64,000 nucleotides of DNA from Prorocentrum cordatum. Its lineage: Eukaryota. The translations under genes and the position numbers were made by a program. Under the pieces are notes generated by a model. That model had not been told where the DNA came from and did not search any database. It was given only the letters and a program-made list of their open reading frames with translations. The stretch is taken from assembly GCA_963575745.1 (NCBI GenBank), contig CAUYUJ010000004.1, positions 186,001 through 250,000 on the forward strand. The letters are read 5' to 3'. Positions within the stretch are counted from its first letter, which is position 1. Every line of letters begins with the position of its first letter. This document shows, piece by piece, positions 5,637 through 44,239 of the stretch.

Positions 5637-6343
5637 TAGCCCTACAGCCCTGTAGCCCCATAACCCTGTAGCCCTATAGCCCTATCGCCTGATAGCCTTA
5701 TAGCCCCATAGCCCAACAGCCCTATAGCTCTATGACCCTATAGCCCAATAGCCCTATAGCCTTATAGCCTTATAGTCCTATAGCCCTACCGCCCTAGAGG
5801 CCTATAGCCCTACAGCCCAATAGCCCTATAGCCCTATAGCCCTTTAGCCCTATAGCCATACAGCCCTATAGCTCTATAGCTCTATAGCCCTATAGCCCTA
5901 TAGCCGCATAGCGCCCGCTAACCCTATAACCCTATAGCCCAATAGTCCTTTAGCCCTATAGCCTTATAGGCCTATATCTCGATAGCCCTACAGCCTGATA
6001 GCCCTATAACCCTGTAGCCCTATAGCCCTATAGGTCTATATGCCTATAGCACTATAGCCCTATATCCCCATAGCTCTATATCCCCATAGCCCCGTAGCCC
6101 TATGGTCCTACAGCCCTATAGCCCCATAGCCCTGTAGACTCATAGCCCTATGGCCCTATAGCTCTATAGCCCCAGAGCCCCAGAGCCCCATAGCTCTATA
6201 GCCCTGCAGCCCTATAGCCGTATAGCCTTATAACCCCATAGACCTTTAGCCCAATGGCCCTATAACCCTATAGCCCCATAGCCCTATAGCTTTATAACCC
6301 CATCGCCATATAGCTCAATAGCCCCATAGCCCTATAGCCCTAC
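5637..6343. repeat. 8-bp satellite (TAGCCCTA)n, degenerate
   Basis: About 700 bp of tagcccta variants in tandem. Confidence 0.97.
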
Positions 6344-8499: not shown

Positions 8500-11400
8500 T
8501 GGTGGCTGGCCATGATGACAAGTTAGAAGAAGTCCTCGTCGGAGGCCTCCGAGACATGGTCGGGGCCCCCGCCGCCGCCCGACTGGCCGAGTTCCTGGGC
8601 TCGTCCCAAGTCGGCGGCGCGCAGCCCAAAGGCCGACAGGACCGATGCCTGCGAGGGCAGGACGAAGGACCCTCCCGCGGCAGCCCCGCCCGAGGCGGGG
8701 CCCGAGTCTGCGGAGGGCAGCTGCAGCGAGCTCTCGAGCTCAGCCCTCTCATCAGCTCCCAGAGACACTGGCTGGCTGAGCACGAGGGCCTGTGAGGCGC
8801 GCCGATAGTGGGGGGGCTTCCCCCGCTTGCTGCGCCTCAGCAGGGACCTGACCTTATGGTCCGCTGGCTTCCGCTCACACCGCGACAGCGAGGTGTAGCC
8901 CCGCACCTAAAACAAAACGACATCTTGCCCGAATCCGCGGACGGCCCCTCGACGTGGCATTTGAGCAAGCCATGCCCGCGGAAGTAACAGGCATTCAGGG
9001 CCTCGTCGGCCCACAGGTCACCGTCGCAGTCCAACCCGCCCACCTCCACGACGACATCAGACGACGGCCCACCCTCTCCATCGCTCTCGGGGGGGGGGGG
9101 GGGGGGGGGGCGGCAGCTCCGAGGGACCGTGCTCCTCGGCGGCCACACCTACCGTGTCGCCCCTGCCGCCCTGCTGGGCGAGCCAGACCTCAAGTCTGCC
9201 CGCCCACCTCCCCTGTCCTTGACAAAGGGCCTTGCACCCTCTGGTCAAGCTGGCGTGCTCTTCCGTGACTCCATGCACACATGCTCCTGCTTTAGCATGG
9301 GGGCCCGCGGCCTGGTTGGCCCGAAGCTCCCACCAGGTCGTCTTACCAGACTCCACGTTGGCATTGCCCGCGTGGGCCAAAGTTTTGAACGTTTCAAAAT
9401 CCTCATGAGAAAAAGCAGCCCGAAAAGGCGCCCACATGTGTCCTCTTGGGGCCCAGGCCTCGGTCCCCGTGCCTGGGCCCCCGCAGAGAACATTGAACGT
9501 CGATTGACAATCTAGATGAAATTGGAATGGCACCCTCCCTACATGCGCCAGCATGTGGATCGCTAAATCTGCGCCATCCTTGGCTGTCTGGCGGGGGCCG
9601 AAGGACAGGGGCACAGGGCCATGCGCTGCGTGCAACGCATTGCCAAGCTTGTCCACTTGCACTAGCGTCCAGCCCGCCCGACTGACTCCTTCGATCGACG
9701 GCCACATGGGCGAGCCGTCGCTGAAGATACATCCCGTAAGGAAACCGCACGCAGGTCTGTCCACCCACTTGACAGCTTCATCGGGGTCTCCTTGCAAAAC
9801 GCTCCCCCGCCTCGACCCCTTGCTCAAGGGCTCTGGCAGCGCGCTCCCTCAGCCACGGCGAGACTCCATCCCTCCCGAGGCCTTCGTGCGCCACGCACTC
9901 ATGCTGCTTATGCCAAAGCGTGCCACAACCTGCCTGGCGCAACCGACACACAGGCGACGCGTGCAGCCCATGTCCGTGTACCCTAGCTTGCGGCCAATGC
10001 ACGTCACAAAGCAGGGCCCTGAGGGCGCGCTGGTGGTGGCTGGACCAATGCTTTCTTTTGCTGCGGAGGAGCTGGCGCAGCCCCCGCCGGAAAACAGGCC
10101 ATGGTGGCCGCGGGGGCCCGCTCCCACGCCGACCTGAAGTGTCCAAGGCAAAACGGCCCGACTCCCTGATGGCCCCGTCCTGCACTAGCTCTCTAAGTTC
10201 CGACGGCGAGAGCTAGCGTAGGTTCAACGCGTGCCCGAAATCGTCCATCACGCGCGTGCTAGACAGAAACCTCCAGTCTATCCTGGACACGGCGGGGCAA
10301 CCTACCTCCGCTGGCGGCGAGGCGGCCCCCCCCCACGGGTGATGGAAACGCTCCAGTTTATCAAGGGCCGCGCCCATGGTCGCACCTAACACCGTCGGGG
10401 AGGGGAAGCTGTCATACACGGCAGAGGCCCGCTGATGCATTGCGCGCCCCGTATAGGCAGCCAGTGGGTCCGCCAATGCCCCTAGCCTGCGCGAGTGGAG
10501 CTTGAGCCCAAGACTGGAACCTTTCGGGGCCCCCCTGTGATGCGGGCAGCCGAGATGCGTGGGCCATGCGTGGCCGATGGGGGGGCCCAGTGGCACTGCC
10601 TCCCCAGGGCGCTGCCGCAATAGTCCCAACCCTTTGGACGAGGCCTACATCGGCACCCGCGTTCTGCAAGATCTGCAACCGCTGGCCCCTCGATTTGGCA
10701 GCGACGAGCTTACTCCTGGCCGTGCCGACTCAGCGACAGGACCCCGAGGGCGCGTCCGTGCCGAGATTCCGAGCCGAGTCCACTCTGGACGAGGACGGGG
10801 TCCTCAATCGATCCTTGAGAAGACTAGACACCTCCAGGCTGCACATATATTTGGTCTTGCTCATTGCAGCTGGAAGGCTGCGACGATCGAAATTCGTCAG
10901 CAGCGGCTCAGCCCCTTCGCCGAGAACTTGGGCCACCTGCTCCTTCCTTCTACAAACCTGCAGCGCAACATCAGCCATGACGTTCCTAACCATCCACTGC
11001 GATCTCCCCTGCTTTGCCTGCAGCATCGGGTCCAAGGGGGGCAGCTTCGCAAGGCGCGTCGCTCCGCTACAACCTGCAATCACAGACCCGCTGGCGTGCG
11101 CCACTCGCGACGCAGCACCCCCGCGTAGAAGCGTGCGGGGACAGGCGTATATCGTGCACAGACAGCGAAAAAACACACGGGAAGTTGAACCTCGGCGCCG
11201 CCTCGTACAGGTGTTCGCGGCCTATGTGCTCGTAAACTTGGAAAGGTCAACAGGGCGGAGGCCGACCCGAACCCGACCCCTTTCGAGAAACTCCCATGTA
11301 GAATATGGACCCGCCTTGCACGCTCACATGTAGCGGTTTTGTTGACCCCTCAGAAGACGTCCTCCATGTGGTCACGCTCCAACGCTTGAACATGGACTGC

Positions 11401-14025
11401 CTCGCCCTGGGCCAAACCTTGGTATGAAAAAGGGTCAGCAAGCCGATGGGGCGCACGCCTCCGTCGGCCTTGTCGGTAAGAACGGCATTCGTTACGAAGA
11501 CGAAGAGAAACAATTCCTGTGGAGACTCTTCAAGCCTGTGCAGAATGTCGATCAAACGTATAGCGCACCCATCGCCAAGCTCTAGCACCCGCCGAGGATG
11601 AGACCCATCCCACCCCAATCCGAACTTCCTGCTATACCTCTTGCATACCTGCATTCTAATCTCGGGAGGTATAGCTGGCAACGCAGCCTCTTCGCGGGGC
11701 ACAGACCAGGTCGCTGGATGTTGGGCTCCCTGGCCCGCTACGTTCCATAGCGGCGTCCAGACCTCCAGTAGGTAGCCGAACGCTTCCTGCACGCAAACCG
11801 GCTTCCCTGCCGCGTCTAGCAAGGACGTTGGGGCTCGCCAGCGAACGTTTCGAGCAATCGTGGGCCGCCTTCCCTCCGCCTTAAGTTGACTCCACCGCCC
11901 GCGGCCCCCGCTCCGCCGAGCTGGGCTTGGCGCCCTGTCTTCTCCTCCGCTCCACTTCAAAACTCAGCTCGGGCAAAACCTCCGCCTCCTCCTCGACCTT
12001 CCCATCCACGACATCGTTGGCGAGGAGCACTCGGTCAGTCTTAGTGGGGCCGCTGTCGCCGGAGTCCAGGGCTTCGGTCATGCGCGACAGCTCATCCCTC
12101 CACCCGAGCAAAACATCGGCCTCGGCGGCCAGCTGCTCCTGAAACAGACTGTCTACACCTGGTGACGAGACTCTGAAACGCTGTCCAGGTTGTGGAGGCT
12201 TTGGCAAGCCTCCGCCTTTAGTCCTTATGCCAGAGCGTTCCCAGGGGGACTGTTTGGCGTCCTGGGCCCTCGAGCCCTGCCGGCGCAGCCCTGGGCTTCT
12301 TTGCCGTGCAGCCCGTGGATCTGGGCCAGGCGGTCCTCGGCAGCCCCAAACCATCCATTGCTTGCGCATTTGCTCCAGCGTGACTTCACCGGCTCCCGAC
12401 ATGTTTTTCAGTCCACTGCCACGCAACCCTCTTGGGCTCGGGATGCGGGCCAATAAAACCATGCTCGAACGGGCGCAACTTAACCTGGCGAGGGACCGCG
12501 GCGAGGTGGGAGAGACCTTCTAGCTCCATGTAGACAGAACTGCGCGGTCCAAGCGGGACCTCCGAGAACACTTTGAGGCCCTTGACCCGAGGCGCCAGAC
12601 ATTCTGCCAGGAGGAAGTAGTCCAAGCCTCGCCCTGATCCAGAAATGCCAGTAGGGTCCAAAACCTCAGCCCCCACTGAGCCTTCATCACGCCGTCGGGA
12701 TCTCCTCGGGCCCCAGTGCATGCGGGCTCCCTGGCAGCCACGATCTCACCCCTGACGATCTGCAACCACCCCGACGCCATCAATGCGGACGGCTGGAAAT
12801 TGAAACCGCCCTGGACAATCCAAGGCAGTTGCTGGCTGAGCAGGAGCTCTCCCAGGGTCTCCAAGAGCGCCGCCTCCTCCCCCGACAGCCCACACCCAGT
12901 GGTGCTGTACACCGTGACAACTAGGAGGCCCTGCGGGAGCCCAACGTTGACCACGCGCATGCTTACCCTGTTGGCTGGCAGGTCGATCTACTTTTCAGCG
13001 AACGGCTTGGAAGCTAAGTTGCACTGGACTCCGATGGCAACGCCACCTGAGCTCTCAACACTACTGCTGCCAGTGCTTTTCGCCAGCCCATGAGACAGCT
13101 GCCAGCCATTCCTTGCCCCCCCTTCCCCAAGCTGATGCCGTGGACGCCTTGGAGGCTGTCTTGATGTGAGTCTCCTGGATCATGATCACATCGGGCCTGC
13201 TCGCCAGTCCGCCTCCAGTGGGCGCTTCGTCCATGCGCCATGCCAAGACAGTCTCGGCCGTGCTCCAGGCGTTGGCGTTGATGCACAGGCAGCCCAAGTT
13301 CGTGGCTTTGAACTCATCGACTGGCCCTGAGCATGGCGGCGGACCCTCGACCCTGATCACGCACGCGTGTGCGGCCTCTGCCTCCACGACTGCGATGTGG
13401 TCGCCTGCCTTGGCGGCCTCCTCGAACGAGACGCCGTGCCCCTGCACCCTCGGCGTCGACGGAGACGAGGGCGTCACTGAAGCTCTGGGCCTCCTCGACC
13501 CCGACGGCTCAATCGACGGCGGCGGCCTCCCCGAACCGCTCGTGGCAATCGACGAAGAGGGCCGCCCTGGACTTCTTGCGCCGCGAGCCTCCGCAGACCG
13601 CGTCGAGCTCGAGGACGCAGTGGCCGCCCTTCTCGTCGTTGAGGCTGGCAGCGGCGCGGGGAGGGGGTTGCGACTTTGCAGGGCTGAATCCTGCCGCCCC
13701 TCCCCCAGCGGATGCTGGACTGACCGTGCCCCTCCGAGTGGGGGCCATTCGACAGGGTCCAGCACCCTGCCGCTGCCAGCCTTGCCGCCTCCTCCAGCGC
13801 CGCCTGCCAGCAGCCGCCGCAGCGCTGCATCAGTACCTTGCTGGCCCACCTCCATGGAGCGGTCGCGTGGTTGCCCCCTGGCTTGGGGGCGGGGTCAACG
13901 GGTGCTCCCAGAGCTGCTCCCTGCCCCGCCCGGGCCAACGCGCCGCCCCTCCAGTCCTCAGCGGCCCCGCCCACGCTGCACCGTCACCTGCAGCGGCACG
14001 CTCCCCCAGCCGAGCGCCGACGGGA
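8500..14025 (-). mobile_element. Degenerate LINE (non-LTR retrotransposon): APE endonuclease - RT - RNase H, with many frameshifts and stops
   Basis: Minus-strand motifs occur in canonical order. APE: 'CINANAW...PDVIMIQETH', 'VVTVY...WIVQGGFN', 'LDYFLL' (13300-12600). RT: 'LGWDGSHP', 'KADGGVRPIGLL', 'VIAGCSGAT', 'NVMADV' (11960-10730). RNase H: 'IFSDGS...AGW...HGPVP...LDC...KTLAH...ANQAA' (9827-9250). Boundaries are approximate. Confidence 0.88.
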
Positions 14026-14269: not shown

Positions 14270-14291
14270 TCCGTTGCCATTTTGGCTCCAG
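14270..14291 (+). other. Relic dinoflagellate spliced leader heading the RPS26 retrocopy
   Basis: TCCGTTGCCATTTTGGCTCCAG matches DCCGTAGCCATTTTGGCTCAAG at 20/22 positions and lies 91 nt upstream of the ATG. Confidence 0.92.
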
Positions 14292-14382
14292 GTATATCCA
14301 AGCCTTCCCACCCGGGCCGCCACTGCGAGACTGATCCTAGACAGACAGAGGCGCAGAAAAGGCAGAAGAAGACAGCCCAGGC

Positions 14383-14724
14383 ATGCCGTCCAAGCGCCGC
14401 AACAACGGCCGCTCCAAGCACGGCCACGGCCACTCTGCCATCGTCCGCTGCTGCAACTGCGGCCGCTGCGTGCCGAAGGACAAGGCCATCAAGCGGTTCC
14501 AGGTCCGCAACATGGTTGACGCGTCGTCCCAGCGCGACATCCGCGACGCGAGCGTGTACCAGACGTTCATGCTCCCGAAACTCTACATGAAGATGCTGTA
14601 CTGCGTGTCCTGCGCCATTCACGGCCGCGTCGTCAGGGTCCGCAACAAGGTGTTGCGCGCCAGCCCAGAGGGCCGCATCTACGTGCGCCCTGCGTTCGGC
14701 AAGGGCGGCGGCAAGGGCGCCTAG
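14383..14724 (+). CDS. RPS26: 40S ribosomal protein S26 (eS26), intact intronless retrogene
   Basis: [17 protein letters not shown]...[26 protein letters not shown]...[24 protein letters not shown] is the eS26 signature. Strong GC3 codon bias, no introns, relic SL upstream. Confidence 0.98.
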
Positions 14725-16381
14725 GGCGACGGCAAATGAGGGTGGGGCCGACCGATCTGGCGGCCGCCTTGGCAGAGTTCCTGGTGCCGTGCGAGAGGCT
14801 AAAAGGAAGCAAGCGCAACAACATTTCAGAGGAGAGTTGTGGCTAGCAGCGCACGTTTCTACGTTGCCCGAGATACGGTGACATTGGGGACCGGCGTCCT
14901 AATCGCGAGAAAGACAACGGCCAGCAGCAGCACGCGGCTAAAGCAGCATGACTTTCCGTCGTGCCCGAAGTAGGTCGTACAGTGGGCCGTGCCCTGGGAG
15001 CGCATATCAATGTATCTTAAGCGGGGTTGTGGCCCTGGAAGCGCGCATCCGTTGTCTTTTACTTGTCCGGCGTGCCCAGAGGCTGAGAACATCCAGTCTG
15101 GTGAGGGTAGCGCGCGCCATCTGTCCGGTGGGGCATTGCGCGCGTTTGCAGGAAGAGAGAATTTGAGAAGCCAATGTCTGAATTGCTGAAGCTTCGTATC
15201 TTGCCAGGGATGCTACCAAACTGCTGCTGAGAGAACATGGGCCGCGCAGCCTCGTTGCCCTGAAGGGGGGTCGGCAGCTGTGTCCAGGGAAATCACAAAG
15301 TCAAACGCACCAATTTCTCCGTTCACTGGTTGTGCACGAGTGTGCACCATCCTGTTTTGAACTTGATCGTGGCCCTTGTTGCGTGGATCTAAGTCCTTTG
15401 CGATGGATCGCGGTCGTCAGACGTGAGGACGCTTAATTATATTGAGTGCCATGGCGCACAGTTGCTGACGAATTATTGCTCGACTGTTGTGTCTTATGAA
15501 ACATTGGAAAGATTTGAGTTTGCACCTTCTCCCTATGGTAAGGTTTTGATTCGGCGAGGACTGCGGTGAACAATTAGAAAGTTTCATCAGTGGTGGCGAT
15601 ATTCATAACAAGCACTTCGGGTATTGATAGGTGGTCACAGTTTTGCGTGGCACAGAATTTGGGGGGGTGGGATGTCTGGAATGGTTTGTCCGGACGGGGT
15701 TGTCGGGAGTGCCCGTAGAATTGGAGGTTGTCCAGATTGTCCAGATGGTTGTGCAGTCTGAGTCTGGCGCCTCTTCCCTTTTCCTTCTTCCCCCTCCCTC
15801 CATAGCTTTGCTTCTTCCCACTAGCTTGCCCGATGTGGTAGCTCAAGTAGCTTCAATCAATAGCAGCAGCCCGAACGGCCAGATGTCCTAGCAACCTGCC
15901 CAGGCTAGGATGAGCAGAACGTCCGTAGAAAGTGCAGAGTCAGAGAGAGTTGACCCAGTGCCAGTTTCTTAAGCTTGCCTAACGCACCGCTTCGATTTGG
16001 AGAGTATTGGGACAAATGTTTAAGTTATGTGTTTAGGCGTTGTTGCTATCAATAACACCAGGGACATTGTTTACTGGCTTGGGGTAGATAACACATCCGC
16101 GGGTAATCGTGCTCAAACGAGGCTGTCATCGTTTCCTTCCGATAAGTCGCAGCATTTGTCTGCTCACTACACCTTCGCGCATTCTGGACGGATGGCGTAG
16201 CTAGGCGTATCCGTCCTGCTCGCATGCGTGACCTGCCTTTCAGGTGCAACAGCTGAACGCGCAGGGGCCTGTCGGTGCCCCCAGGCAGAAACTGCATCCA
16301 GTCGATTCGCCCCAGCCTCGGCCGATCCCTGCTGTTTTCGGGGGAGGTGGCCTCATTGCGAGGGATCGGCTCAGGTAGCAG

Positions 16382-26893: not shown

Positions 26894-27054
26894 TTGTCTA
26901 GTGCAGGGAGGGAGGAGGAGAGGGGTGGTAGGTGGTCCGGCGCGGTCGGAGAATGGCACGAACCCTATCCTTTGGATATGGGGAATATCACTAGCCCCGT
27001 CCTTAGGATATGGGGGGAAGAGAGAGAGAGAGAGAGAGAGAGAGAAAACACATC

Positions 27055-27076
27055 TCCGTAGCCATTTTGGCTCAAG
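27055..27076 (+). other. Perfect genomic copy of the dinoflagellate spliced leader at the 5' end of a LINE
   Basis: TCCGTAGCCATTTTGGCTCAAG, 22/22 match. It is followed by GC rather than a GT donor, so it is not an SL RNA gene. Confidence 0.98.
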
Positions 27077-27247
27077 GCCATGAGACGCCCGACGACCGCG
27101 AGTCCTCGTGGGCGTTTCGAGCGCGAGGGGTCTCGCGCTTTGGGCCAAGGTACGACAAAGCAACGGGAGCTTGCCTGGCCGCGGCGCGCGGCTGCCCTCT
27201 TCCTCCTCGCATTGCTCGGGGCGCCTTCCCGCGGAGGGCGGCAGCAA

Positions 27248-28537
27248 TGACGGGCGGCGGCGCTGGGGGCGCGCGTGGCGGCGGCGGCCCGGGGGGGCAG
27301 CAAGCCTGGAGGCGGCGGCTCGGGTGGTCGAGGGCCACGAAGCGTGGGGGCTGGAGCAGCAGTGCGTGCGCCGTCTGGGAAGGCGCCTTGGTACTGCAAG
27401 TCTTCCGACGCCAAGGGCTTCAGGTTTGTCAACTTCGGCGACCGCATGTCCTGCAAAAGGTGCAACTGCCGGAAGTCCTCGCACTTCGGAGGCTCGCCCA
27501 AGGAGAGTGCGCCCTCCTTCAAGGCGACGGAGAGCCTCAAGCTGGCCAAGGCGCTTGAGGAGACCAAGCAGCTCAAGGCGGCGGCGGGGGCGCGCGGTAT
27601 GCCAGCTGCAGGGGCCCCCCCGCCCTGGCAGGAGGGAGCCCCAGGCTCCCAGGAGCGCCAGCGCCTGGAGCTCGTCAACAAGCAGCTGGGGGACCTGCGG
27701 CGCTGGGCCGACATCGAGGACGAGGACGACGAGGCGCTCCGCTCGGCTGCCAGCGCCAAGAAGGCCAGGCTCGAGGCGGAGGCGGAGCAGCTGCGCCAGG
27801 CGCTCTTCACGCGAAGCCGAAGGACGTGCAGCTCAAGAGCCTTGCGGACCAGATCAAGAAGCTGGAGAAGCAGCAGGAGAAGGGCCGCGGCGACCTCGCG
27901 GCGGTGGAACTGCAGCAGCAGGAGCTCGCGGCCAAGGCGACGGAGCTGCGCGCGGCCGAAGTCGAGCGGGAGGCGAAGCTGGTCGAGCTCAAAGCGGAGC
28001 AGGCCCGCATGGTGGGCAGGCTCGCGGCCCCTCCTGCTGAGCCTGGGGCTGGCTTGGATGGCGTCGTGGAGGGGGGCGGCTTCAGGTTGACGGCTGGCTG
28101 ACTTCTTGGGCAAGGTCCTGGGTCGCTTCGGCGCGGAGGGCGACTTGCACGACGCGCTGCGGGCCCAGGCGACCCAGCACGAGCAGCAGCACAGGGCCGC
28201 CAAGGAGGCGGAGGCCGCTGCTGCGCGGGCTGCGGCGGCCGAGCAGCGCGCTGCTGCCGCTGGGCAAGGGGCGCCTGCTAACGCCCCCGCAGCAGCGCCG
28301 CCTGGAGGCGGCCGAGCCCCGCTCCCAGGTGAAGGGGTTGCTGCAGGCGAGGGCGCCATGGGCGACGAGGAGCTCGACGCGGAGGCTCAGCTCAAGTTCT
28401 GCCGAGCCTTCGGGGCAGCCCCGTCGGCTGGAGTGGGCGATGATCGCCCTGCTGATGATGTGGTGCGTGATGCCTTCAAGCGGGCGCGCGCTGAGCACGG
28501 CATGTCGCCGCCCAAGCGGGCGCGCACTGCGGCCTGA
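27248..28537 (+). pseudogene. LINE ORF1: RanBP2-like zinc finger plus coiled coil, frameshifted
   Basis: 'WYCKSS...VNFGDRMSCKRCNC' followed by helical E/K/Q/A-rich segments in ORFs 27275-28090, 27826-28101 and 28106-28537. The start is approximate. Confidence 0.75.
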
Positions 28538-29639
28538 GGGCACGATCGTCGCCGTGACGGACGACGACCTCGACTGGGGGGCCTGCTACGGCATGCTGTG
28601 CGAGGCCGACGAGCGGGCGGCCCAGGAGTTGGGCGGTTTTGGCTTCTGGGGCGCTGATCGCCAGGGCCAGGAGGGCCAAGGGCGGGCAGCAGAGGCGCCC
28701 CCTGCTGGGAGCGGCAGGTGGCCCTCAAGGTCTGGGGACGCCAGTGAGCGCCATGGGGCCTCACGAACCACTCCTGGGGTGAGCCGCCCTTCGAGGACGA
28801 GTGTGGGCCAGCCGCGCGGCGCCTGTGGCAACGCCGCCTCCCCCAGATGCCCAGCCAGGGCGGCCAGGCGGCGCAGTCCCCTGCTCCTGGCTGGATGGCC
28901 GCCTGCGAGGGGGCGCAGGCAGCTGGGGCGCCTGGTGGTGCGGCGCTGGCGCGGGCGCGGGCTGCTGCTGGCGAGCGGCGCTGGCGCGGCGATGGGCTGC
29001 GGCGTGGGCGGGTGGCTGCAGACCCCCGCTGGGCTGCAGGGGGTGTTCGGCCTTCAAAGGCACGGCCCCAGGATGTCAGATTGGGTTGGCCAGGTGAGGA
29101 CCCCCGACTGGCAACCTCAGGTGTCGGCCCCAGGGTGCGGCCTGCATGATGCCCTGGAGGCGGGCTCTCAGGGGATGCGGACCGTCAGACCCTCCCTGGG
29201 CTGATGGGGGCGTTCGGCCATCAAGGGTGCGGCCCCAGGATGTCAGATCTGGTTGGCCAGGAGGGCTCCCCCGATTGGCAACCAAGGGCGTCGGCCTCAG
29301 GGCACGGCCCAGGGGGGGGGGGGGCGGAGGGATTCCGCCCCTCGACGTCGCAGCCTCTCCCCCGCACGGACTCCGAGTTCGTTGCGCAGCAGGGCATCGG
29401 GGACCAGGTGCTCGGCGAGTTCGGGCCCCCTGCATGCCGGGAAGCCTGCAGCCTCCGAGACCCTGCCTCGGGCGGCGATGCAGCCTGTCCTGCGCGCCCC
29501 GCACGGAGCTCGAGCCCCCCGCTCGCTCCGCCCCCCCCAGCCGCGGGAAGGTGCCGCCCTCCCGCGGGTCCCCGACGCGACCGCGTCGGCCAGTGCAGCG
29601 CACTTGGAGCGGCTGCTCGCTGGCAAGCCCAAGCCGATG

Positions 29640-32600
29640 GCGGAAGCAGGGTGCTGCCTGTCCACTGCGAATGCTTCGTCGCGGGGGCCGCCGGGCGAGT
29701 GCCTCCTGAGGGCGGACGGCAACTCGACATTGGCCATCGCGGTTCAGGAACACCACCGTCTGGCCAAGGACCTGGCGACGCAGCAGCGGGCGTCTAAAGG
29801 CGCGGGCTGGCATGGGGTATGGGGCGCGGCCAATCCGTCTTCGGCGTCGACCTCGGGTTCCGTCGGTGGCGTAGCGGTGCTGGCTCCCACCGTAGTCTCC
29901 GTCACGGCGCCCCCTGGGCGTGACTCCCCCGTGCTGGTGCCAGGGCGCCTGGTGGCGGGGCACGTGCGTGCTGGCCCTGCTGGCGGCGCGGTGGCCCTCA
30001 GCATCTACCTGCGCGACGGCGAAGGGCTTTCGGGCAGCGGCGTGGGCATCATCTGGCAGCTGGTGCAGCACCTGGGGCGGCTCGAGGCCGACGGCCGCCA
30101 CTGGGCGGTCATGGGGGACTGGAACATGGAGGCGGACGCGCTCGATGTTGGCTGGGTCGGCAAGCTGCGGGCCCAGGTTCGGCAGGCGAGCGGCCAGTCG
30201 TGCAGGCAGGGCGGCGGGTCCAACATCGACTACTTCGCGGCGTCAAAGAGCCTCATCCCCTTCACAGGGGAGGCCCCCATCCTGGACGTCGGTGCCCACG
30301 CGTGGCCGCGCTGGCCCGTCCGCTCGACGCTGAGCCAGGTGCGCGCGCAGGCCGTGCAGCAGGTTATCGACGAGCCCAAACCGATTCCCAGGGAGGCGGC
30401 CAAGCCTGGCTGCGCCCGCCCGCCCTGGCGCTGGGGCGCGTTCGCGGGGTGCGTGAACGCCGCCACGGACCAGCAGGGCCTCCAAATAGTTTGGGACGTG
30501 CTGCTGGAGGGTATCGAGACGGAGATCCTCAACAGGCGCGATCTGGTCGGCGACGCTCGGCGCACCTTCGCGGGCCGCGGCGCGAAGGGGGATGTGAGCA
30601 TGAAGATGAACAGGCCCAGTGGCACCCTCCTCACAAGCGGAAGCGGCGAGGGCCCGAGGCCCACGCCTGGGCGGCGCTGGCAGGTTGGGCGTCGGAGCTC
30701 CTGGAGAAGCAGGCCTACCTGGCGAAGATGTTCGGCGCCCTGAAGGATCACCCTGTCGAGGAGGGGGCCAAGCCCGCGGCGGCACGTGCCAAGTGCATGT
30801 GCGCGATTGCAAAGGCCCTGGTGCACCTTCGGCACTTCCTGGAGCCCCTGCACTGCCAGGGGCACTGGCATCACCTCCCGAGTTGGACGCGCGAGCCCTT
30901 CCTGGACGTTGCGGACTTCGGCAGCGAGGGTTGGGCGCAGGACCTCGGGCGGGTGTTGCAGGCGGCGGAGCAACGGCAGCGCAAGCAGGCCAAGGAAGAC
31001 GAGGCCCGCTGGAAGGAGTGGGCCGACGGGGCTTTCCTGGGAGGAGCAGGCGCCGCCCACGCCGCCTCCAAGGCCTCCGTGCTTCAGGAAGTGCCCCCAG
31101 CTCATCCTTCGGAAGGGAGCGCAGGCGCTAGTGGCCAGGGAGTTGCAGCCATGGGTGGGCATCTGGAACCATCACGGCCTGACCCGCATGGAGTTGCCCC
31201 CGATGCTCCCACGTGGGACGCCCTGCCGCCGCTGCAGGTGCATGCAGTGCGGGACGTGGTCCGTTCCTTCCCGTGGCGCACGGGCGTGGGCCAATCAGGC
31301 ATGCCGCCGAGGGCGCTGGAGGACCTGTCAGGCGACTCGCTCCTGGCCATGATCGCGGTCTTCCACAAGCGCGAGGGGCTGCTGGCATGGCCGAATAGCC
31401 GCCTCATCAACACCATGGCGCGGCTCCCCAAGCCCGGCGGCGGCTGTAGGCTCATCGGGCTCATGCCGACGTTGGTGCGCGTGTGGGGTCGGGCCCGCAG
31501 GCCTATGACGAAGACGTGGGAGCTGGACAACCCCTCGGAGCTGGTCTTGGGCACGGGGTCAGGCAGAGCCAGCTCGGACTCGGCGCACGAGCTCAACTTG
31601 GCCAAGGAGCAGGCGAAGCTCGGCGGCTGGGACTCTGCCCAGGCCGCCCTGGACCTCTGGAGGCCTACGAGATGGTGGCGCCCGAGGCCCAACTGGCGGA
31701 GGCGCGGGCGCTGGGTTTCCCCATGCGGCTCACATGGATGCTCCCCAGCACCTACCGCCAGCCGCGCGTCCTGGCCGCCTTCGGCACGATGTCGGACCCG
31801 TTCGTGGCTTGGCAGGGGAACATCGCGGGGTGCGGGCACGCCAACTCGCTGCTGATGGTGCTCACCCTGCGGGCCCTGCGCAAGGCGCATGCCCTGGCGC
31901 CATCGGTCACCCCGCGGGGCCTGGTGGATGACGTCACCCTGGGCTGGAGCGGGCCCAAGGAGGCGGACGACGACAGTCTGGTGACAGCGCTGAGTCTCGG
32001 CCGACATGATGGAGCCCAAGTTGGTCATGCAGCCGCAGAAGTCGGGCTTCCTGGCGCCCTCCAGGCGGAGGGCGAAGCTGCTGGCCCCCCACATGCTGCG
32101 GAGAGGTCTCACCGAGAAGTTTTGGGTGCGCAACCTGGGCCACGAGCTGCACGGGCGGAAGGTCATCCGCACTCAGGAGAAACGCCGCCTGCAGGCCCTG
32201 GCTGAAAGGCGAGGGCGCATGGCCATGCCCAGGCGGGCTGCTGGGAGGCGCGCTGCCGCCCCGGTGGCCACAGGGCTCTCGCCGTCGGCGGGGCATGGCG
32301 CAGGGGTCTCGGGGCTAGCTGACAAGCCTCTGGCCCAGCTGCGTACGCTGGCGGCGGCCACCGCTGGGGCCAAGGCGGGCTGCGGCACGGCGGCCGTCAT
32401 GGTGCTGCAGAGGCGGGTGGCTTTCGACCCGATCTGCGCTCCACGGTCCCGCTGGTTTGCAGGCTGGCCAGTCGCATCTGGGAGGGCCGCGGCTCTTTGG
32501 CGGGGCTGGAGGCTACCTGGCAGGTGCTACCTGCGGATGTGCGAGCGGGCTCCCTGTCGTGGGCTTCGGCGCAGGGGCCGCTTGAGGCTACCTTGCTTTC

Positions 32601-35480
32601 GCTCGCGCGCATCGGCTGGGACATGGCGGCCGTCTGGGCCCTGCGGACCGACCAGGGGGAGGTCATCTCCTTGCTAAGGGTGGCCCCCAGGGACGTCAAA
32701 GACGCGCTCGCGGAGGGCACCCAGCGCTGGCAGTGCAGGGGGCTGGTCGCCCACTTGCCCGAAAGCGGCGGCGAGGTGCTCTGGCCGCGGGCCGTGCGGG
32801 CTATTGCCAGGCGGTCTCGGCCCGCTGCTGAGCTGGGGGCCATCCAGGCCCTGTGGGCAGGCGGCCACTTCACCGTGGTCTGGCGCTATGCCCACGGCTT
32901 CGCCACCACGGAGCTGTGTCAGGCTTGCGGCCAGGACAGGGACACCCTGATGCACAGGTGGTGCGCCTGCCCTGAGGTCATGCAGCCACGGGGCGAGGAG
33001 CTGGAGCTGGAGGAGCCCTTTCGCAAGCCGATCGTGGCCATGCACAAGCAGATGGCGGAGGCCGAGCAGCAGTGGACCATCGGGGACAGCGAGCTGCCGT
33101 TGGCTTATGGCCTGCCGCTGCTGCCTGCCCTGTCGCCTCCTGCGCCTGCTGCGAGCGTCATCTTCGAGTGGGGTGCCACGCAGGTGGCCTGGCCTGCGGT
33201 CGTCTACACTGATGGGTCAGGCCACGCCTCGCAGGTGCCTGAGGCGCGCAGGTGCGGCTGGGCGGCCGTGACCCTCAGGCCCGACGGGGTGCCGCTCAAA
33301 GCCGCCTATGGGCCGCTGCCTGGGCCGCGCCAGACGGTGGGCAGGGCCGAGCGGCAGGCCTGCCTGGCACCCTTGTCCCAGGCGGGAGAGGTCCAGCTGA
33401 TCGTCAGCGACCTGCAGTCGCTCGTCACAGAGGGCAACCTTTGGAGCCCCATGGCGCAGGCGGCTGGCGCGAGGCACGCCAGCATCTGGCGGCAGCTCCA
33501 TGCAGCTGCGGAGGCGCGAGGCAGCCCGCCCCCGCGCTTCAGATGGGCGCCTGCCCACCGCGCCCTGGAGCAGGCGCTGGAGGAGGACATCAGGCCCATG
33601 GACTGGCTTGGGAACTGCTGGGCGGGCTTCTTCGCCAACCTGGGGGCCGCCGAAACGAGGCTGCCCAACAACACGGTGGAGGCGCTCAAGGCGGAGTTGC
33701 AGCGGGCGCTGGACACCGCCACGTACTGGGGCTGGGCGGCGGCGCGCGTTTGCCAGCTGGATCTCTGGCGGCCGCTCGGGGGCGACGGGGAGCTCCAGCG
33801 CCGGGCAGAGCTCAAGTGCCCCGCCCCTCCCAAGCTCAGCCTCACGCGGCACGAGTACCAGGCGATCAACGCCAGAGGGGTCCGGTGCCTCCACTGCGGA
33901 CGAGGCGCACACCGAGAAGGCACGCTCACTGCTGGACTGCCGCCCGTGCCAGCCGTCGGCGCTGGGGCGGCTGCGCGCGGCTCGCAGCCGCGATGTTGGC
34001 GGGGCGCAGCTGCTCGCCGGCTCGGCCATGGTGGACGCGGGGGCCCAGGCAGCGGCTTTGTTCGAAGCAGAGCAGGTTGGCCACAGCAGTGCGGCGCCTG
34101 AGGTTGGCCAGGCCTTCAGCCCCACGGAGGGCGGCGCGACGGGCAGCGAGTTCGAGCGCAAGGTGCAGCACCTCCTGGCGGCGGCGAAAGGCGACTCGGC
34201 AGGCGTTGCTGGCCTGGGCCCGACGGCGGGCAGCCATGGGCAGGAGGCGGCGGCGGCAGCTGCGGCGCACGCTCGGCCAGGGCCGTTGCCGAGGCCACCT
34301 GCCAACCCTGGCGGGCCAGCGCCTGCCGCGGGCAACGACCTGCTGGCCATCGAGGCCTGGGAGCGAGCGGGCCCTCTGGAGGCCACGCTGTGCACGCTGG
34401 CCAGCTCGTGGATCACGGACCTGCTGGACCAGAGCCTCGCCTACGCCTCGTGGATGGAGGAGTGCGTGGACTACGTCTACAGGCTGCTGGGGGAGGACGC
34501 CTTTCGAGGCTTCTTCGCGTACACGACGACCCCCGAGTCGCGCAACGCGGAGCGGCTGAGGAAGGCCAGGGAGTTCTGCGAGCGCGGGTGGCGGGACGGG
34601 AGCCGCCCAGGAGTGCTGGGCTTCCGCGGCCCGAAGGCCTCTTGGTGCTGGGCGGCTACCTGGCAGTGCGGCAGCCGTGGCGCAACCCGCAGTTCCCGTT
34701 GCCGCAGCAGCGGGGCCTCGACGCCAGCGACGACGACGACGTTGTTCCGCACCCTGGTGCAGCCTCGTCAGGCCTGCCCCCGCCGCCGCTGGCGGCCGCT
34801 GCGGGGTCTGGCGGACAGCCGCCAGGGCTGGGGGTTGGCAACCGCAGGCGCTGGCAGGTCGAGACGGCGCCGCATGGCTCAGACTCCAGCGAGGGCCCCG
34901 GCCTGGGCGGCGACCCCACCGTGGAGGCGGCCATCCATGGTATTCCGCCGCAGCACCTGGTGGACACGGGGGACGCGGGCGGCGACGGGGTGGCCGCTGG
35001 CCCAGCGCCCTGGGAGCCCGACGGCGCGGCGGACGAAGCGGACGGGAGTGTTGCGGAGAGGCGCGGGCCTGGCGGCCTCCCGCTCGCAGCAGCTTGCGCC
35101 CTGGCGGCAGCGGTGGCAGCGGGGCTTGGCCTGGCCAGCAGCGGCGCTGGGGCAGCGACGGGGCAGGCGCCAGCGCGAGGTCCAGGAGCCCGCAGCGAGG
35201 GGCCCCAGGCAGGCAGCCGCGGGGCGAGGATGCCAAGCCAGAGGCGCAGCTGGGCCACGCCTTGCGCACCGCTGGCGGCTATGCTTTCTGCTGCAAGTGC
35301 GGCGCCTTCGCCGGGATCGAAGGTGCGGACCGCGCCAAGGGCCTCAAAGCTGGCTGCACGGGCCGACTGCCGCCTGGACCTCAGGCCACGGCGGGCCAGA
35401 AGAAGAAAGGGCAGTGCCTGACGAGGCTGCTCAGCGCCAAGGACCCCTACACGGGCAAGCCGCTAGCGCGAGGGAGCTGC
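29640..35480 (+). pseudogene. LINE ORF2: APE endonuclease, reverse transcriptase, RNase H, C-terminal zinc fingers; several frameshifts
   Basis: APE: 'STANASS', 'AVQEHH', 'SIYL', 'MGDWN', 'NIDYF'. RT: 'LPKPGGGCRLIGL', 'ALDL', 'NIAGCGHAN', 'LVDDVTL', 'RNLG'. Cys motif 'CQACG...DTLMHRWCAC'. RNase H: 'VYTDGS...GW...GPLPG..QTVGRAE...SD...WAPAH...GN'. C-terminal 'CLHCG' and 'GH...FCCKCGAF...C'. Confidence 0.92.
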
Positions 35481-35827
35481 GCCTGGTGCGGCGCCGCCCG
35501 CTGGCAGCCCTGCTGGCTGGCGGCCGCGCCGCCGCGCGGCCCCAGGGCGCCGCTGCCCACGCTGCTGGCGGGCCCCGCTTGCTGGCCGCGCGGGCCCCCG
35601 TCGGCCGCGCGCCCCGCGCGCGGCCGCCTCCCAGGTGCGGCTCGCGGGCTCACTGCTGGCTGCGGCCTGGGGCCTTCTCGGCTGCGCGCCCGCGCGCGGC
35701 CGCCTGCGGCCTGCTGGGGCGGGCCGCCCTGGTGCTCGGGCACGGCGCGCGAGGCGCCGCGCCCCTGCGTGGTCGGGCTGCGCGCGCCCGCCGCGCTCGA
35801 CGGGGCGTGCTCGCGCCGATGACGTGC

Positions 35828-35829
<2 letters not shown>

Positions 35830-35880
<51 letters not shown>

Positions 35881-35935
35881 CATCTGAGACAACGAATGAG
35901 GGGAGAGAAAGGGAACAGGGATGGAGAGAGAGAGA

Positions 35936-41887: not shown

Positions 41888-43399
41888 TACACACATACAC
41901 ACATACACACATACACACATACACACATACACACATACACACATACACATACCCTGGGTTTCTTATGAGCGTGGCGCCCCCCCCTCGGCGGCCGGGGCGC
42001 GCCGAGCTCGGCCCCTTGAGCGGGCCGCGGCAGCGTTGTGGAGGCGCTGCGGCCGCGCGGGTTTCGCGACAAGCCTGCCGCGCCCCGGCAGCCGCCCGGA
42101 GGCGGGGCGAGGATGTAGATCTGAGCGGCGACTCCGAGTTGGAGGCAGATGGCGCGCCGATCGAGTTCCGACGGAAAAAGAGCTGACTTTGCTCAGCGTG
42201 CCGACCAGACTGTCGCGAGTCTCCCTCGACCTCCGTGGGGCCGCTTCCGTTTGACCATCGGGTTTCTCGAGATGCGCGGTGTGGGGGGGGGGGGGGCCTC
42301 GGTCGCGCCTGGGTTCGAGACGGTTCGCGGTGGCCCCGATCTTAGCGCTGGAGGGGGGCTGGGATTTACATCGGAGCATATTTGCATGGCCAGTGTTCCT
42401 GATCACTCGCAAGAATGTTGGGGCGTGGGCCGCCGCGCGCGACTGCGGGCCCGGCGAGGCGCCTGCGCCCGCGGGGCAGTGCAGCCCCGCGGGGCTACGA
42501 CGCGCGGGAATTTCAGACCCTGGAAGGCAACGGCCACTCGCTCCAGAGCATGTTCCTGGCTGCGCTGCAGGTCTCGGTCGGTGGGTTGCATGCCGGGGGC
42601 AGCCGGCGCGGGGCGCGGTTCTTCCCGACGTGGCAGCTGTTGGAATGCTTGGATTCGCCGCGTATTGTCTTCGATTGATGTCGTTGTGTCGTTGGCCTTG
42701 CTCCGCGATGCCTCCCTGCCCCCCGCGTTCGGCCAGCGTTGCAAGTGCCCCGCGGGCGCCCGGCGCGTCTCCCTCCTCGGGAGCTACGCGACGCGGGCCT
42801 CCTGCCAGAATGAGTCCTCCTGCCGCGCCATGGCCAAGTTGGCGCGGTTGGAACGAGACAGCCGCGACGCATGTCCGAGCCAGGCCCAGGGGCATCGACC
42901 GGCGGCCTCGAGGCGCCGCGCGCCCCACCTGCGGGCGGCCCGCCTGTCAGAACGCCTATCGTGGAAGCCCATGTTGGGTCGATGTTTGGAAAGCCAGGTG
43001 CGTCGAAGCCCCGCGAAGCGCCTCCTAGCCAACGGCAGACCAGTGATCTGCATGGGCTCGAAGGTGCGTTTGGGGGCTGGGGCCGAGGGCCGCGGCGCAT
43101 CTCCGAGTCTAGACTCGAGGGCGGAGAGCACCCGCAGTTCATGCGCGCGTCCGCCAGGAGCGTCCGCACATATGATATCTCGCAGGCGGGGGGCGCCCGC
43201 CCCTCGCTCGGGCCGGGGCCGCGGCGGCTGGCGCTTCTCCTGGCGAGCGGCCCAGAGGCGGCGCGCAGCGGCCTGGATGGCTGCAGCTGCGCCGCGCGGG
43301 CCCTGGCCCGCTGGGGTCTGCTGGCTTGCCCGGGCCTCGGCGCCGGCGGCGCCGGGCCGGGGTGGGCAGCTCGGCCCTCGGCGCCGCGCATTCGCGAGC

Positions 43400-44239
43400 G
43401 GCGCGACCCGGGGCGGGGCAAGATCTCGGCGCGACGGGCGGAGCTGCCAGAGCGCTTCGCGGCCTGGGCGCGCTGGGCCTGCCGGGCTGGGCGCCGCGCG
43501 ACTTGGCGCCGCGGCGCCCCCTCCGCTTGGGTCGACGAGTTCGCGCTGCAGGCTTGCGGCGTGGGCTGGCCCTGGGGCTGCCGGCCTCGCGCCCCCGCGC
43601 GCGCAGAGGCCGCTGCGTGCGATGGTGCTTTCAGCGCTGTCTTGGTGGCGGCGGTGGCAAATTGCCAGATTGTTCTTGAGCGGCTCCTACGCGTTGTTGC
43701 CGCCGCGCGAATGCTTGGGGCTCGCCCGGGGCGACTTCGCCCAGCCGCGTGCGCGCTTGGGAGGCGAGGTGATATTCGCCCGGGCGAAGATCACGCCGGG
43801 CGAAGACGCACGGGCGACGCGCGCGCCGACAACGCGCGCGTCTCGACAAGCCCAGTGCAGTCGCTTTCTTGGCGACGTGTGCCGCGAGGCGCACGGGCTC
43901 CGACGTGATATGGGGCAGCTCTGGTTCGGCCTTCTCTCGACGCTTTGATGCCCTGCGTCGCGCTGCGTGACGGGCCTGAACGATGCCATCGCGCTGCCCT
44001 CGTCCCTGCGCCTGGGTGGCGCCGCGTGCTTCTTCGAGAAATGGGACGAGGACATGAACTGTTTGCAGTGGAGAGGGCGATGGGCCAGCGTCGAAATGTT
44101 GAATCACTATGTGCAGGAGCTCGAGGCTCATCAGTTGTTGGGAAATTTGCCAGGTAATTCAAACATTTGTACGCGTAGATGCCCTCAGCTTTTTGCGTTG
44201 TTCAGCTTTGGTCGAATACAGGCCCCCTGCTGCGGATAG
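43400..44239 (+). mobile_element. Degenerate tyrosine recombinase of a DIRS/Ngaro/Crypton-type element
   Basis: 'LFLSGSYALLPPRECLGLARGD' resembles box I (LLRPGE.L.L...D). 'SSLRLGGA...LQWRGRWASVEMLNHYVQ' contains the box II HxxR/GRW/catalytic Y region. Frameshifted. Confidence 0.8.

Follow-up and report, generated by a model that had tools for sequence, protein, structure and literature searches.

Relics of the spliced leader (SL) on retrocopies are a textbook feature of dinoflagellates, and retrogenes of these organisms carrying relics of the dinoflagellate SL (DinoSL) were reportedly described by Slamovits and Keeling in 2008. The present analysis concerns a long interspersed nuclear element (LINE) of Prorocentrum cordatum whose first bases are an exact SL. 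It lies within a stretch of 64,000 nucleotides, referred to as the window, comprising positions 186,001 to 250,000 of the forward strand of contig CAUYUJ010000004.1 (assembly GCA_963575745.1); coordinates are those of the window unless another contig is named. SL relics on retroposed dinoflagellate genes are well established, and in the available text of the reports concerned LINEs are treated only as the presumed machinery of retrogene formation (PMC7245778, PMC12014239, PMC5585692). Dinoflagellate genomes contain many thousands of SL-tagged retrogenes, and the element that supplies the reverse transcriptase (RT) is not pinned down in the text available for two of these reports (PMC5585692, PMC12014239). 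In Symbiodinium, genes for 'RNA-dependent DNA replication' or otherwise related to RT are enriched among DinoSL-tagged genes; they are not described as LINE termini in the accessible part of that report (PMC5585692). The P. cordatum locus is like such retrogenes in that what was retroposed begins with a genomic SL, as would be left by a reverse-transcribed, trans-spliced mRNA, and one relative, the protein P0014, appears to carry a classical stack of leaders. It is unlike them in that the tagged unit is itself an autonomous type of retrotransposon, likely to be a source of RT, and has both a (GA)n tail and a target-site duplication.

Among described dinoflagellate LINEs, the SymbioLINEs of Symbiodiniaceae have target-site duplications, conserved untranslated regions (UTRs) and no poly(A), with no mention of an SL in the main text of the report (PMC5890265). 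SymbioLINE and SymbioLINE-Dnmt combine Exo_endo_phos, RVT_1 and RNase_H domains with target-site duplications and the lack of poly(A) (main text, PMC5890265), a set of features to which the element and its relatives are similar. Unlike SymbioLINE-Dnmt, however, the first open reading frame (ORF1) of the window element encodes a zinc-finger-like coiled-coil protein and not a DNMT; a DNMT-LINE was ruled out, since neither the frames of the element nor its ORF1 relatives matched a DNMT. The trypanosome LINEs L1Tc and ingi also live in a host in which essentially all mRNAs are SL trans-spliced. According to the available text, they are transcribed from +1 by the internal Pr77 promoter into unspliced RNA, so that the full-length RNA is preserved (PMC1874656), whereas the dinoflagellate elements take the reverse course and bear the SL. 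In Schistosoma mansoni, six SLs that are encoded in the genome and fused to transposable elements were tentatively called 'trans-spliced retro-transcribed elements'; as given in the accessible text, these SLs are internal to gene models and assembly chimeras could not be excluded by the authors (PMC5832876). In contrast, the SL in the window is terminal, lies inside a target-site duplication and is found again in a second element.

The exact 22-nt dinoflagellate SL, TCCGTAGCCATTTTGGCTCAAG, was found at 27055-27076 on the plus strand with 0 mismatches, so that the DNA-encoded leader by which a DinoSL-tagged retrocopy is recognised is present at the 5' end of the unit with 22 of its 22 bases. 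The 21-mer CCGTAGCC...CAAG has a single exact match in the 64-kb window against 0 expected (100 shuffles), and the only other SL match with up to 3 mismatches is a 2-mismatch relic at 14271-14291, upstream of an RPS26 retrogene. GC content rises from approximately 0.55 to 0.69-0.75 exactly at the SL and drops again after 35,9xx. The window contains two exact copies of GAGAGAGANNNCACATCT (27038-27055 and 35868-35885), where 0 would be expected, and a perfect 7-bp repeat, CACATCT, brackets the element with the SL wholly within the repeat pair; the final T of the left copy may just as well be counted as base 1 of the 22-nt SL. The upstream side reads (AG)13.5-AAA-CACATCT and the 3' side (GA)~23-GCG-CACATCT, followed by GAGACAACG. 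Its place between the two copies of the 7-bp direct repeat makes the SL, on the available evidence, part of the inserted unit, which spans approximately 8.82 kb (27055/6-35878) at 70-75% GC. A first-pass annotation of the window, made from the sequence alone, had placed a 22/22 SL as the first bases of the element, between flanks that both read (GA)n-NNN-CACATCT. Both descriptions hold: the SL stands inside the CACATCT pair at the jump in GC content, and the three variable bases are AAA on the left and GCG on the right of an element flanked by a perfect 7-mer.

LINEs can also be physically associated with SL sequence as their target. SLACS, CZAR, CRE1/2 and NeSL-1 use a restriction-like endonuclease and split the SL exon of the SL RNA genes into which they integrate. 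Such SL-gene-specific LINEs exist in trypanosomatids and nematodes, and a site-specific element of this type, with the SL being target DNA, was considered for the window. The SL at 27055-27076, however, is complete, stands at the 5' end only and lies whole inside the 7-bp duplication; there is no split exon, and nothing SL-like was found behind the 3' end of the element in the window sequence. Neither a GTAC intron nor a T-run is present after the SL, the endonuclease is of the APE type, and the flanks are (GA)n both here and in the second element described below. Targeting of the SL or of SL RNA genes was therefore disfavoured and is hardly credible as the origin of this 5' end.

Self-blastn of the element returned only a 124-bp internal duplication and no terminal repeats. 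For this reason an LTR (long terminal repeat) element was ruled out, and the element is an APE-type non-LTR (LINE) retrotransposon, with RT and APE recognised through relatives, no LTRs, a 7-bp duplication and a (GA)n tail. Long open stretches occur in all frames owing to the GC content. The translation of ORF2 contains the motifs QEH, GDWN and IDYF (APE), LVDD (RT), a CCHC motif, YTDGSG (RNase H) and a C-terminal extension, distributed over frames in the order 3, 2, 1, 2, 1, 2 (at least 5 frame changes). Pfam searches with 18 frame segments of the element gave no family at E<=0.01; when the threshold was relaxed to E<=5, the matches were limited to Exo_endo_phos at E=0.016 and RNase_H at E=0.012, neither of which reached its cut-off. 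RVT_1 was unmatched by Pfam in the window copy and its family, and the identity of the RT comes through relatives. ORF1 has one frameshift just after its ATG at 27247, one stop at 28088-28090 and one lost zinc-finger Cys. Its family has no Pfam match, and the label 'RanBP2-like' for the window ORF1 describes a pattern only, Pfam backing such a finger solely in the second element. Over the whole copy at least 6 frameshifts, one in-frame stop and the damaged zinc finger were counted, of which some may be assembly indels. The copy is complete from end to end but dead, and intact ORFs, as in an active copy, are absent. The first-pass description of a full-length LINE with ORF1 and APE-RT-RNase H-zinc finger was thus right as to extent and, through relatives, as to the domains present; it did not hold for integrity, the window copy being broken and its domains weak, with Pfam scores below cut-offs and no RVT_1.

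A search for further SL-first elements was made by scanning the exact 21-mer SL in prokaryote-genome and IMG/VR collections, which gave 20 + 119 loci with 154 distinct sites. When 14 family proteins were compared with the fetched loci by tblastn, one match was obtained, at L014 (the whole contig is called L141); blastn of the window UTRs matched none of the fetched loci. Of 155 distinct exact-SL sites, counting the 154 that were fetched and the one in the window, LINE 5' ends are confined to L014/L141 and the window. L141 is a contig of 9096 bp with a GC content of 0.71 that begins (GAGAGACA)n(GA)n. It continues with C, the exact 21-nt SL at 117-137 and a 93-nt UTR; the cap-adjacent first base of the leader is missing. 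ORF1 of L141 matches Pfam Zn_ribbon_RanBP at 30.9 bits (cut-off 27). An open frame of 2536 codons runs uninterrupted, with Exo_endo_phos at 37.9 bits (cut-off 24.5), RVT_1 at 44.5 (29.6) and RNase_H at 27.4 (25.8) in its last 1354 codons, and the 3' end reads AAAAAA(GA)n up to the end of the contig. The layout (GA)n-SL-ORF1-APE-RT-RNase H-(GA)n is common to both elements. Judged from these domains and scores, L141 is a distant and apparently intact relative, and because its ORF2 is only 26-37% identical to that of the window, the SL-first layout is common to distant LINEs. Both full-length elements with a visible 5' end (2/2) begin with a single, unstacked SL. Some LINEs are reported to target microsatellites, for example (TC)n, and the window element and L141 are similar to these in their (GA)n 3' tail and their insertion into (GA)n-rich DNA, a likeness that covers two insertions only.

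A leader was also found at the protein level. P0014, an ORF1 homologue (E=3.6e-5), has the N-terminus MAQAILAQG, which is the translation of TTGGCTCAAG + CCATTTTGGCTCAAG + G. This SL-derived peptide lies approximately 34 residues before the Met that aligns with other ORF1 starts and is present in 1 of 8 ORF1 representatives. Read from the peptide alone, the last part of an SL with the canonical truncated relic CCATTTTGGCTCAAG directly behind it would indicate stacking. Stacked CCATTTTGGCTCAAG relics were not seen in the window or L141 and occur in this family only at the peptide level of P0014.

The position of the SL inside the duplication, the lack of GTAC after CAAG and the recurrence of the layout in L141 and P0014 together make a trans-spliced LINE mRNA the likely template of the inserted copy, as had been proposed on first inspection. 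According to this reading, to which a probability of roughly 0.7 is assigned, the LINE mRNA is SL trans-spliced like a host mRNA and target-primed reverse transcription copies the SL into the genome. From the anatomy of the element and its recurrence, which were observed directly, we infer trans-splicing of the LINE RNA, priming by the (GA)n tail and the second-strand step. LINE RNA would be processed as a dinoflagellate mRNA and receive the 22-nt SL. APE would then nick (GA)n-rich DNA, where the (GA)n tail could pair with the (TC)n strand and prime reverse transcription. Synthesis would reach the capped 5' end, so that the SL would become the first 22 bases of the element, and second-strand cleavage 7 bp away would give the target-site duplication.

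The sequence behind the SL bears on a different origin, in which an SL donor RNA or gene (exon plus intron) was captured as 5' UTR or promoter. CAAG is followed by GCCATGAGACG, i.e. by GCCATG. GC after the SL is an allowed donor in SL genes of Fugacium, according to the available text (PMC6616646). In addition, a possible older, decayed SL relic, CTTTGGGCCAAGGTAC, lies at 27138-27153 on the plus strand, 61 nt behind the exact SL, and is followed by GTAC, as in the SL RNA genes that were fetched. This relic has 13/16 matches to TTTTGGCTCAAGGTAC; matches of that level occur 3 times in the window against 0.34 expected, the other two being the known SLs, and the observation is post hoc. At four loci (L006, L007, L013 and L019, on contaminated contigs of metagenome-assembled genomes (MAGs)), six copies of the SL RNA gene have CAAG followed directly by GTAC, then a hairpin and a T-run. 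An SL RNA gene was ruled out for the window, which has GCCATG in place of GTAC, hairpin and T-run. The SL RNA probe for dinoflagellates in general that was used on Prorocentrum minimum likewise spans CAAG followed by GTACA, not GCCATG, in the text available (PMC3101222), and no T-run terminator follows the exact SL. In L141 the SL is followed by TC and therefore cannot be an unspliced SL donor. Capture of a donor is accordingly a very improbable source of the 5' end. Folding of 27055-27250 gave z = -0.84, which lends no support to a structured 5' RNA or ribozyme, and Rfam returned no family at gathering score in the window, with noise only near the 5' end; a ribozyme-defined end is therefore likewise without support.

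A more specific reading is that the family is promoterless, that its copies are cut from read-through transcripts by SL trans-splicing, and that the terminal AG of the integrated leader is used again in each round, leaving one SL per generation. This would agree with the single unstacked SL of both full-length elements and with the genomic junction, in which CAAG followed by G keeps the AG at the same place; many contigs of a DNA run appear to have this SL-to-UTR junction in common, and surveys of relics in transcripts only would miss any use of the terminal AG. P0014 argues in the other direction: its SL followed by a truncated relic implies that the internal AG (SL positions 6-7) was used there, the leader being stacked and not regenerated. 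The decayed relic, moreover, is not adjacent to the exact SL and suggests a variable choice of acceptor, and the T-rich core of the SL has been proposed as a retrogene promoter motif in the accessible text of one report (PMC5585692). This more specific reading as a whole is considered doubtful.

The abundance of the family was assessed in the DNA run X1, in which 355 contigs matched the stretch, 30 at >=99% identity, 37 at 95-99%, 106 at 90-95% and 182 below 90%. With so many contigs across the identity classes, the family is multicopy. Summed contig depth was 660 at 27081-27087 and 5-20 along the body. Among the best-supported matches listed, no base difference was present in 27077-27104. Contigs seem to be cut in 27007-27058, from the (GA)n into the first SL bases, an interval that was masked as repeat. 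The pattern is indirect evidence for many copies that have the SL-to-UTR junction in common but differ ahead of the SL. At 27104 or 27105, six contigs depart from the window sequence. Single contigs were also seen that join a 5' to a 3' part of the element, at 27284/34775 (skipping 7490 nt) and 28958/34243 (skipping 5284 nt); these are possible internally deleted, non-autonomous derivatives, weakly supported because the shorter side covers 24 nt. The segment 26880-26990, which directly precedes the (GA)n, is itself a repeat in X1 (depth approximately 100, 11-13 contigs, deletion variants of 46-54 nt), and its sequence is not repeated elsewhere in the window.

The same depth profile could be produced by a chimeric 5' end, in which the SL and approximately 28 nt were acquired by template switching from another abundant SL-capped RNA or from the upstream flank of a parent copy (5' transduction), the SL then being foreign to the LINE mRNA. 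The depth of 660 over the SL and 28 nt against 5-20 for the body, the departure of six contigs at 27104 or 27105, and an ATG 3 nt behind the SL all agree with such a junction, and the decayed relic at 27138-27153 could mark an older, true LINE 5' end. However, the continuation of the departing contigs after 27104, GTCCGCGGCG, still matches the window at 6/10 positions, or 10/14 including the preceding AGTC (manual alignment), and looks like diverged homologues, while L141 and P0014 independently have SL-first ORF1 units. A chimeric 5' end is regarded as unlikely.

Several observations weigh against a trans-spliced LINE mRNA as the template. LINEs are usually truncated at the 5' end, yet in X1 the first 50 nt are approximately 30-100x deeper than the body, the reverse of what truncation gives, and the SL and 28 nt may be chiefly part of another abundant unit, such as a chimeric 5' end, a non-autonomous derivative or another mRNA family. 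Beyond the 7 bp, for which alone the duplication is certain, the two flanks differ (AAA versus GCG). The relic at 27138-27153 could mean that the choice of acceptor, or 5' transduction, differs between rounds. The sequence after the SL starts with GC, a dinucleotide that some dinoflagellate SL genes can use as donor according to the available text (PMC6616646). Direct examples amount to two elements and one peptide. The RNA run X2, an aquatic metatranscriptome, contributed one internal contig of 257 nt that is 100% identical, which proves neither transcription nor the 5' end; the runs X3 and X4 yielded nothing informative.

Trans-splicing of the LINE mRNA is an expected corollary of known dinoflagellate biology and not a new principle. 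The literature search, which covered the main texts of openly accessible papers, returned no account of a dinoflagellate LINE that begins with an SL, and such an element is undocumented in the literature found. A broader scenario is possible but speculative, namely that a (GA)n-tailed, microsatellite-inserting LINE lineage gave up its internal promoter, that SL trans-splicing defines and caps its 5' end, that the integrated SL is reused as an acceptor through its AGs and/or as a T-rich promoter, and that the same machinery makes SL-tagged retrogenes. If dependence on trans-splicing is true, it would be a third way to define the 5' end of a LINE, beside internal promoters and self-cleaving ribozymes, and a natural counter-example to the trypanosome LINEs, which avoid the SL through an internal promoter. 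An SL-tagged autonomous LINE is also a concrete candidate for the retrogene machinery, with tail type, duplication length and microsatellite target as signatures that can be compared with retrogene junctions.

Relatives of ORF2, at 36-61% identity, were found among P. cordatum proteins and metagenome proteins of ENA, and relatives of ORF1 at 37-55% identity, two of them with P. cordatum names. In P0008 a single model has ORF1 and APE-RT-RNase H in one protein. Profile A5, built from five ORF2 relatives, aligns with the window over 29646-34603 with E values down to 1e-222, and the protein search with the ORF1 profile A2 gave at least 4 matches. The family member P0009 matched L141 in RT (E=1e-16), APE (E=3e-10) and RNase H (E=4e-5), and Pfam Exo_endo_phos at E=4e-4; the RNase H of L141 found the window by tblastn at E=7e-6. 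Against PDB sequences, A5 gave nothing below E=0.4, and ORF2 of L141 matched cellular RNase H1 only. The ORF1 profile A4 gave 166 pattern matches in metagenome contigs and no relative, a 24-mer of the 5' UTR had 0 matches in metagenome contigs, and viral contigs searched with P0002, A5 and L141 ORF2 contained no relatives. A search of MAGs for more LINEs gave G003:C78, where an APE/RT open frame without an SL runs off the contig on either side. The 1-mismatch SL relics L156 and L158, also in MAGs, are not LINE-like. No further copies inside the window were found by blastn or tblastx, and the profile search beyond the element detected only an old APE fragment on the minus strand. This older fragment of the same family lies at 12703-12951 (profile E=3e-11). 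A weak piece at 11322-11768 (minus strand) matches P0005 residues 340-493 and P0006 residues 366-490, upstream of the RT cores, and a piece at 43316-43600 (minus strand) matches the ORF2 C-terminal extension (P0002 residues 621-726). No SL with up to 3 mismatches stands beside these minus-strand fragments (11322-12951 and 43316-43600).

The features of the element are collected in Table 1. Within its 5' UTR an upstream ORF of 57 codons runs from the ATG at 27080, 3 nt behind the SL, to a TGA at 27248-27250, which overlaps the ATG of ORF1 as ATGA. This arrangement is typical of termination-reinitiation and may be due to chance in DNA of 70% GC; L141 has no counterpart of the upstream ORF.

Table 1 Features of the SL-first LINE in the window (TRF, Tandem Repeats Finder)
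Feature	Position	Strand	Basis
5' flank, (AG)13.5 microsatellite then AAA	27019..27048	+	TRF row 27019-27045; sequence
Left CACATCT, putative target-site duplication	27049..27055	+	Sequence, word search
SL, exact 22 nt, 5' terminus of element	27055..27076	+	0 mismatches, 0 expected by chance
5' UTR, 170 nt	27077..27246	+	Sequence, frames; ORF1 start inferred from relatives P0010, P0011
ORF1: Gly-rich N-terminus, C-x2-C...C-x2-C zinc-finger-like motif (second Cys lost), coiled coil	27247..28534	+	Frames, relatives
ORF1 damage: frameshift; stop	near 27250-27296; 28088-28090	+	Frames, relatives
ORF1-ORF2 spacer, weakly alignable to P0012	28535..29645	+	Protein alignment
Internal duplication, 124 bp, 81% identical	29019-29142 and 29186-29309	+	Self-blastn
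ORF2 APE domain	29646..30590	+	Profile A5 positions 9-274, E=1e-102; Pfam Exo_endo_phos E=0.016, below cut-off
ORF2 RT, LVDD motif, frames 2, 1, 2, 1 via frameshifts	30602..32506	+	Family profile A5, E=1e-133
CCHC-type motif CQACGQDRDTLMHRWC and RNase H (YTDGSG)	32422..33921	+	Profile A5; Pfam RNase_H E=0.012, below cut-off
ORF2 C-terminal extension, conserved, CxxC motif	33896..35641	+	tblastn of P0005, P0006, P0002; translations
3' tail, ~23 GA repeats then GCG, without poly(A)	35828..35878	+	Sequence, TRF
Right CACATCT; ~0.9 kb of degenerate (GA)n downstream	35879..35885	+	Sequence, word search, TRF

Other SL-bearing sequences were encountered in the course of the analysis. The RPS26 gene at 14271-14730 of the window (plus strand; named from its translation) is intronless, and its ATG is preceded at a distance of 93 nt by a relic SL, TCCGTTGCCATTTTGGCTCCAG, that is full-length and has 2 mismatches; the gene has no recognisable tail or target-site duplication. 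Exact SLs are often found directly behind microsatellites, (GT)n, (CAT)n, (GA)n or (GACA)n, as in L001, L004, L014 and L016, which are GC-rich, dinoflagellate-like contigs binned into bacterial MAGs, and at 27019-27055 of the window. Simple repeats may thus be the insertion sites of SL-tagged retrocopies in general, as they are of the LINE.

The contigs L021-L139, which belong to giant-virus MAGs in IMG/VR (e.g. L031, L040, L074 and L126), have a GC content of 0.15-0.30 and many exact DinoSL copies, each behind a conserved AT-rich motif, such as AAATCAATTTTTTATTTTTTATTTTTAAATATAAATTTTA, and ahead of a gene start. A literature search by title found none on DinoSL copies in giant viruses. These contigs look like giant viruses that encode the host mRNA leader in DNA behind their own promoters.

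In L009, a 209-kb contig of a Rhodospirillaceae MAG, a lone 21-nt SL at 6001-6021 (minus strand of the locus) stands between two copies of the 19-nt sequence TTTTGCTTGCAGGCGTGAG, which looks like insertion of the leader alone with a target-site duplication. A genomic stack, consisting of an SL and then two CCATTTTGGCTCAAG relics, is present at the contig end of L012. Tandem 50-nt units with a full SL in each were found in L044 (6001, 6051 and 6101) and in L084.

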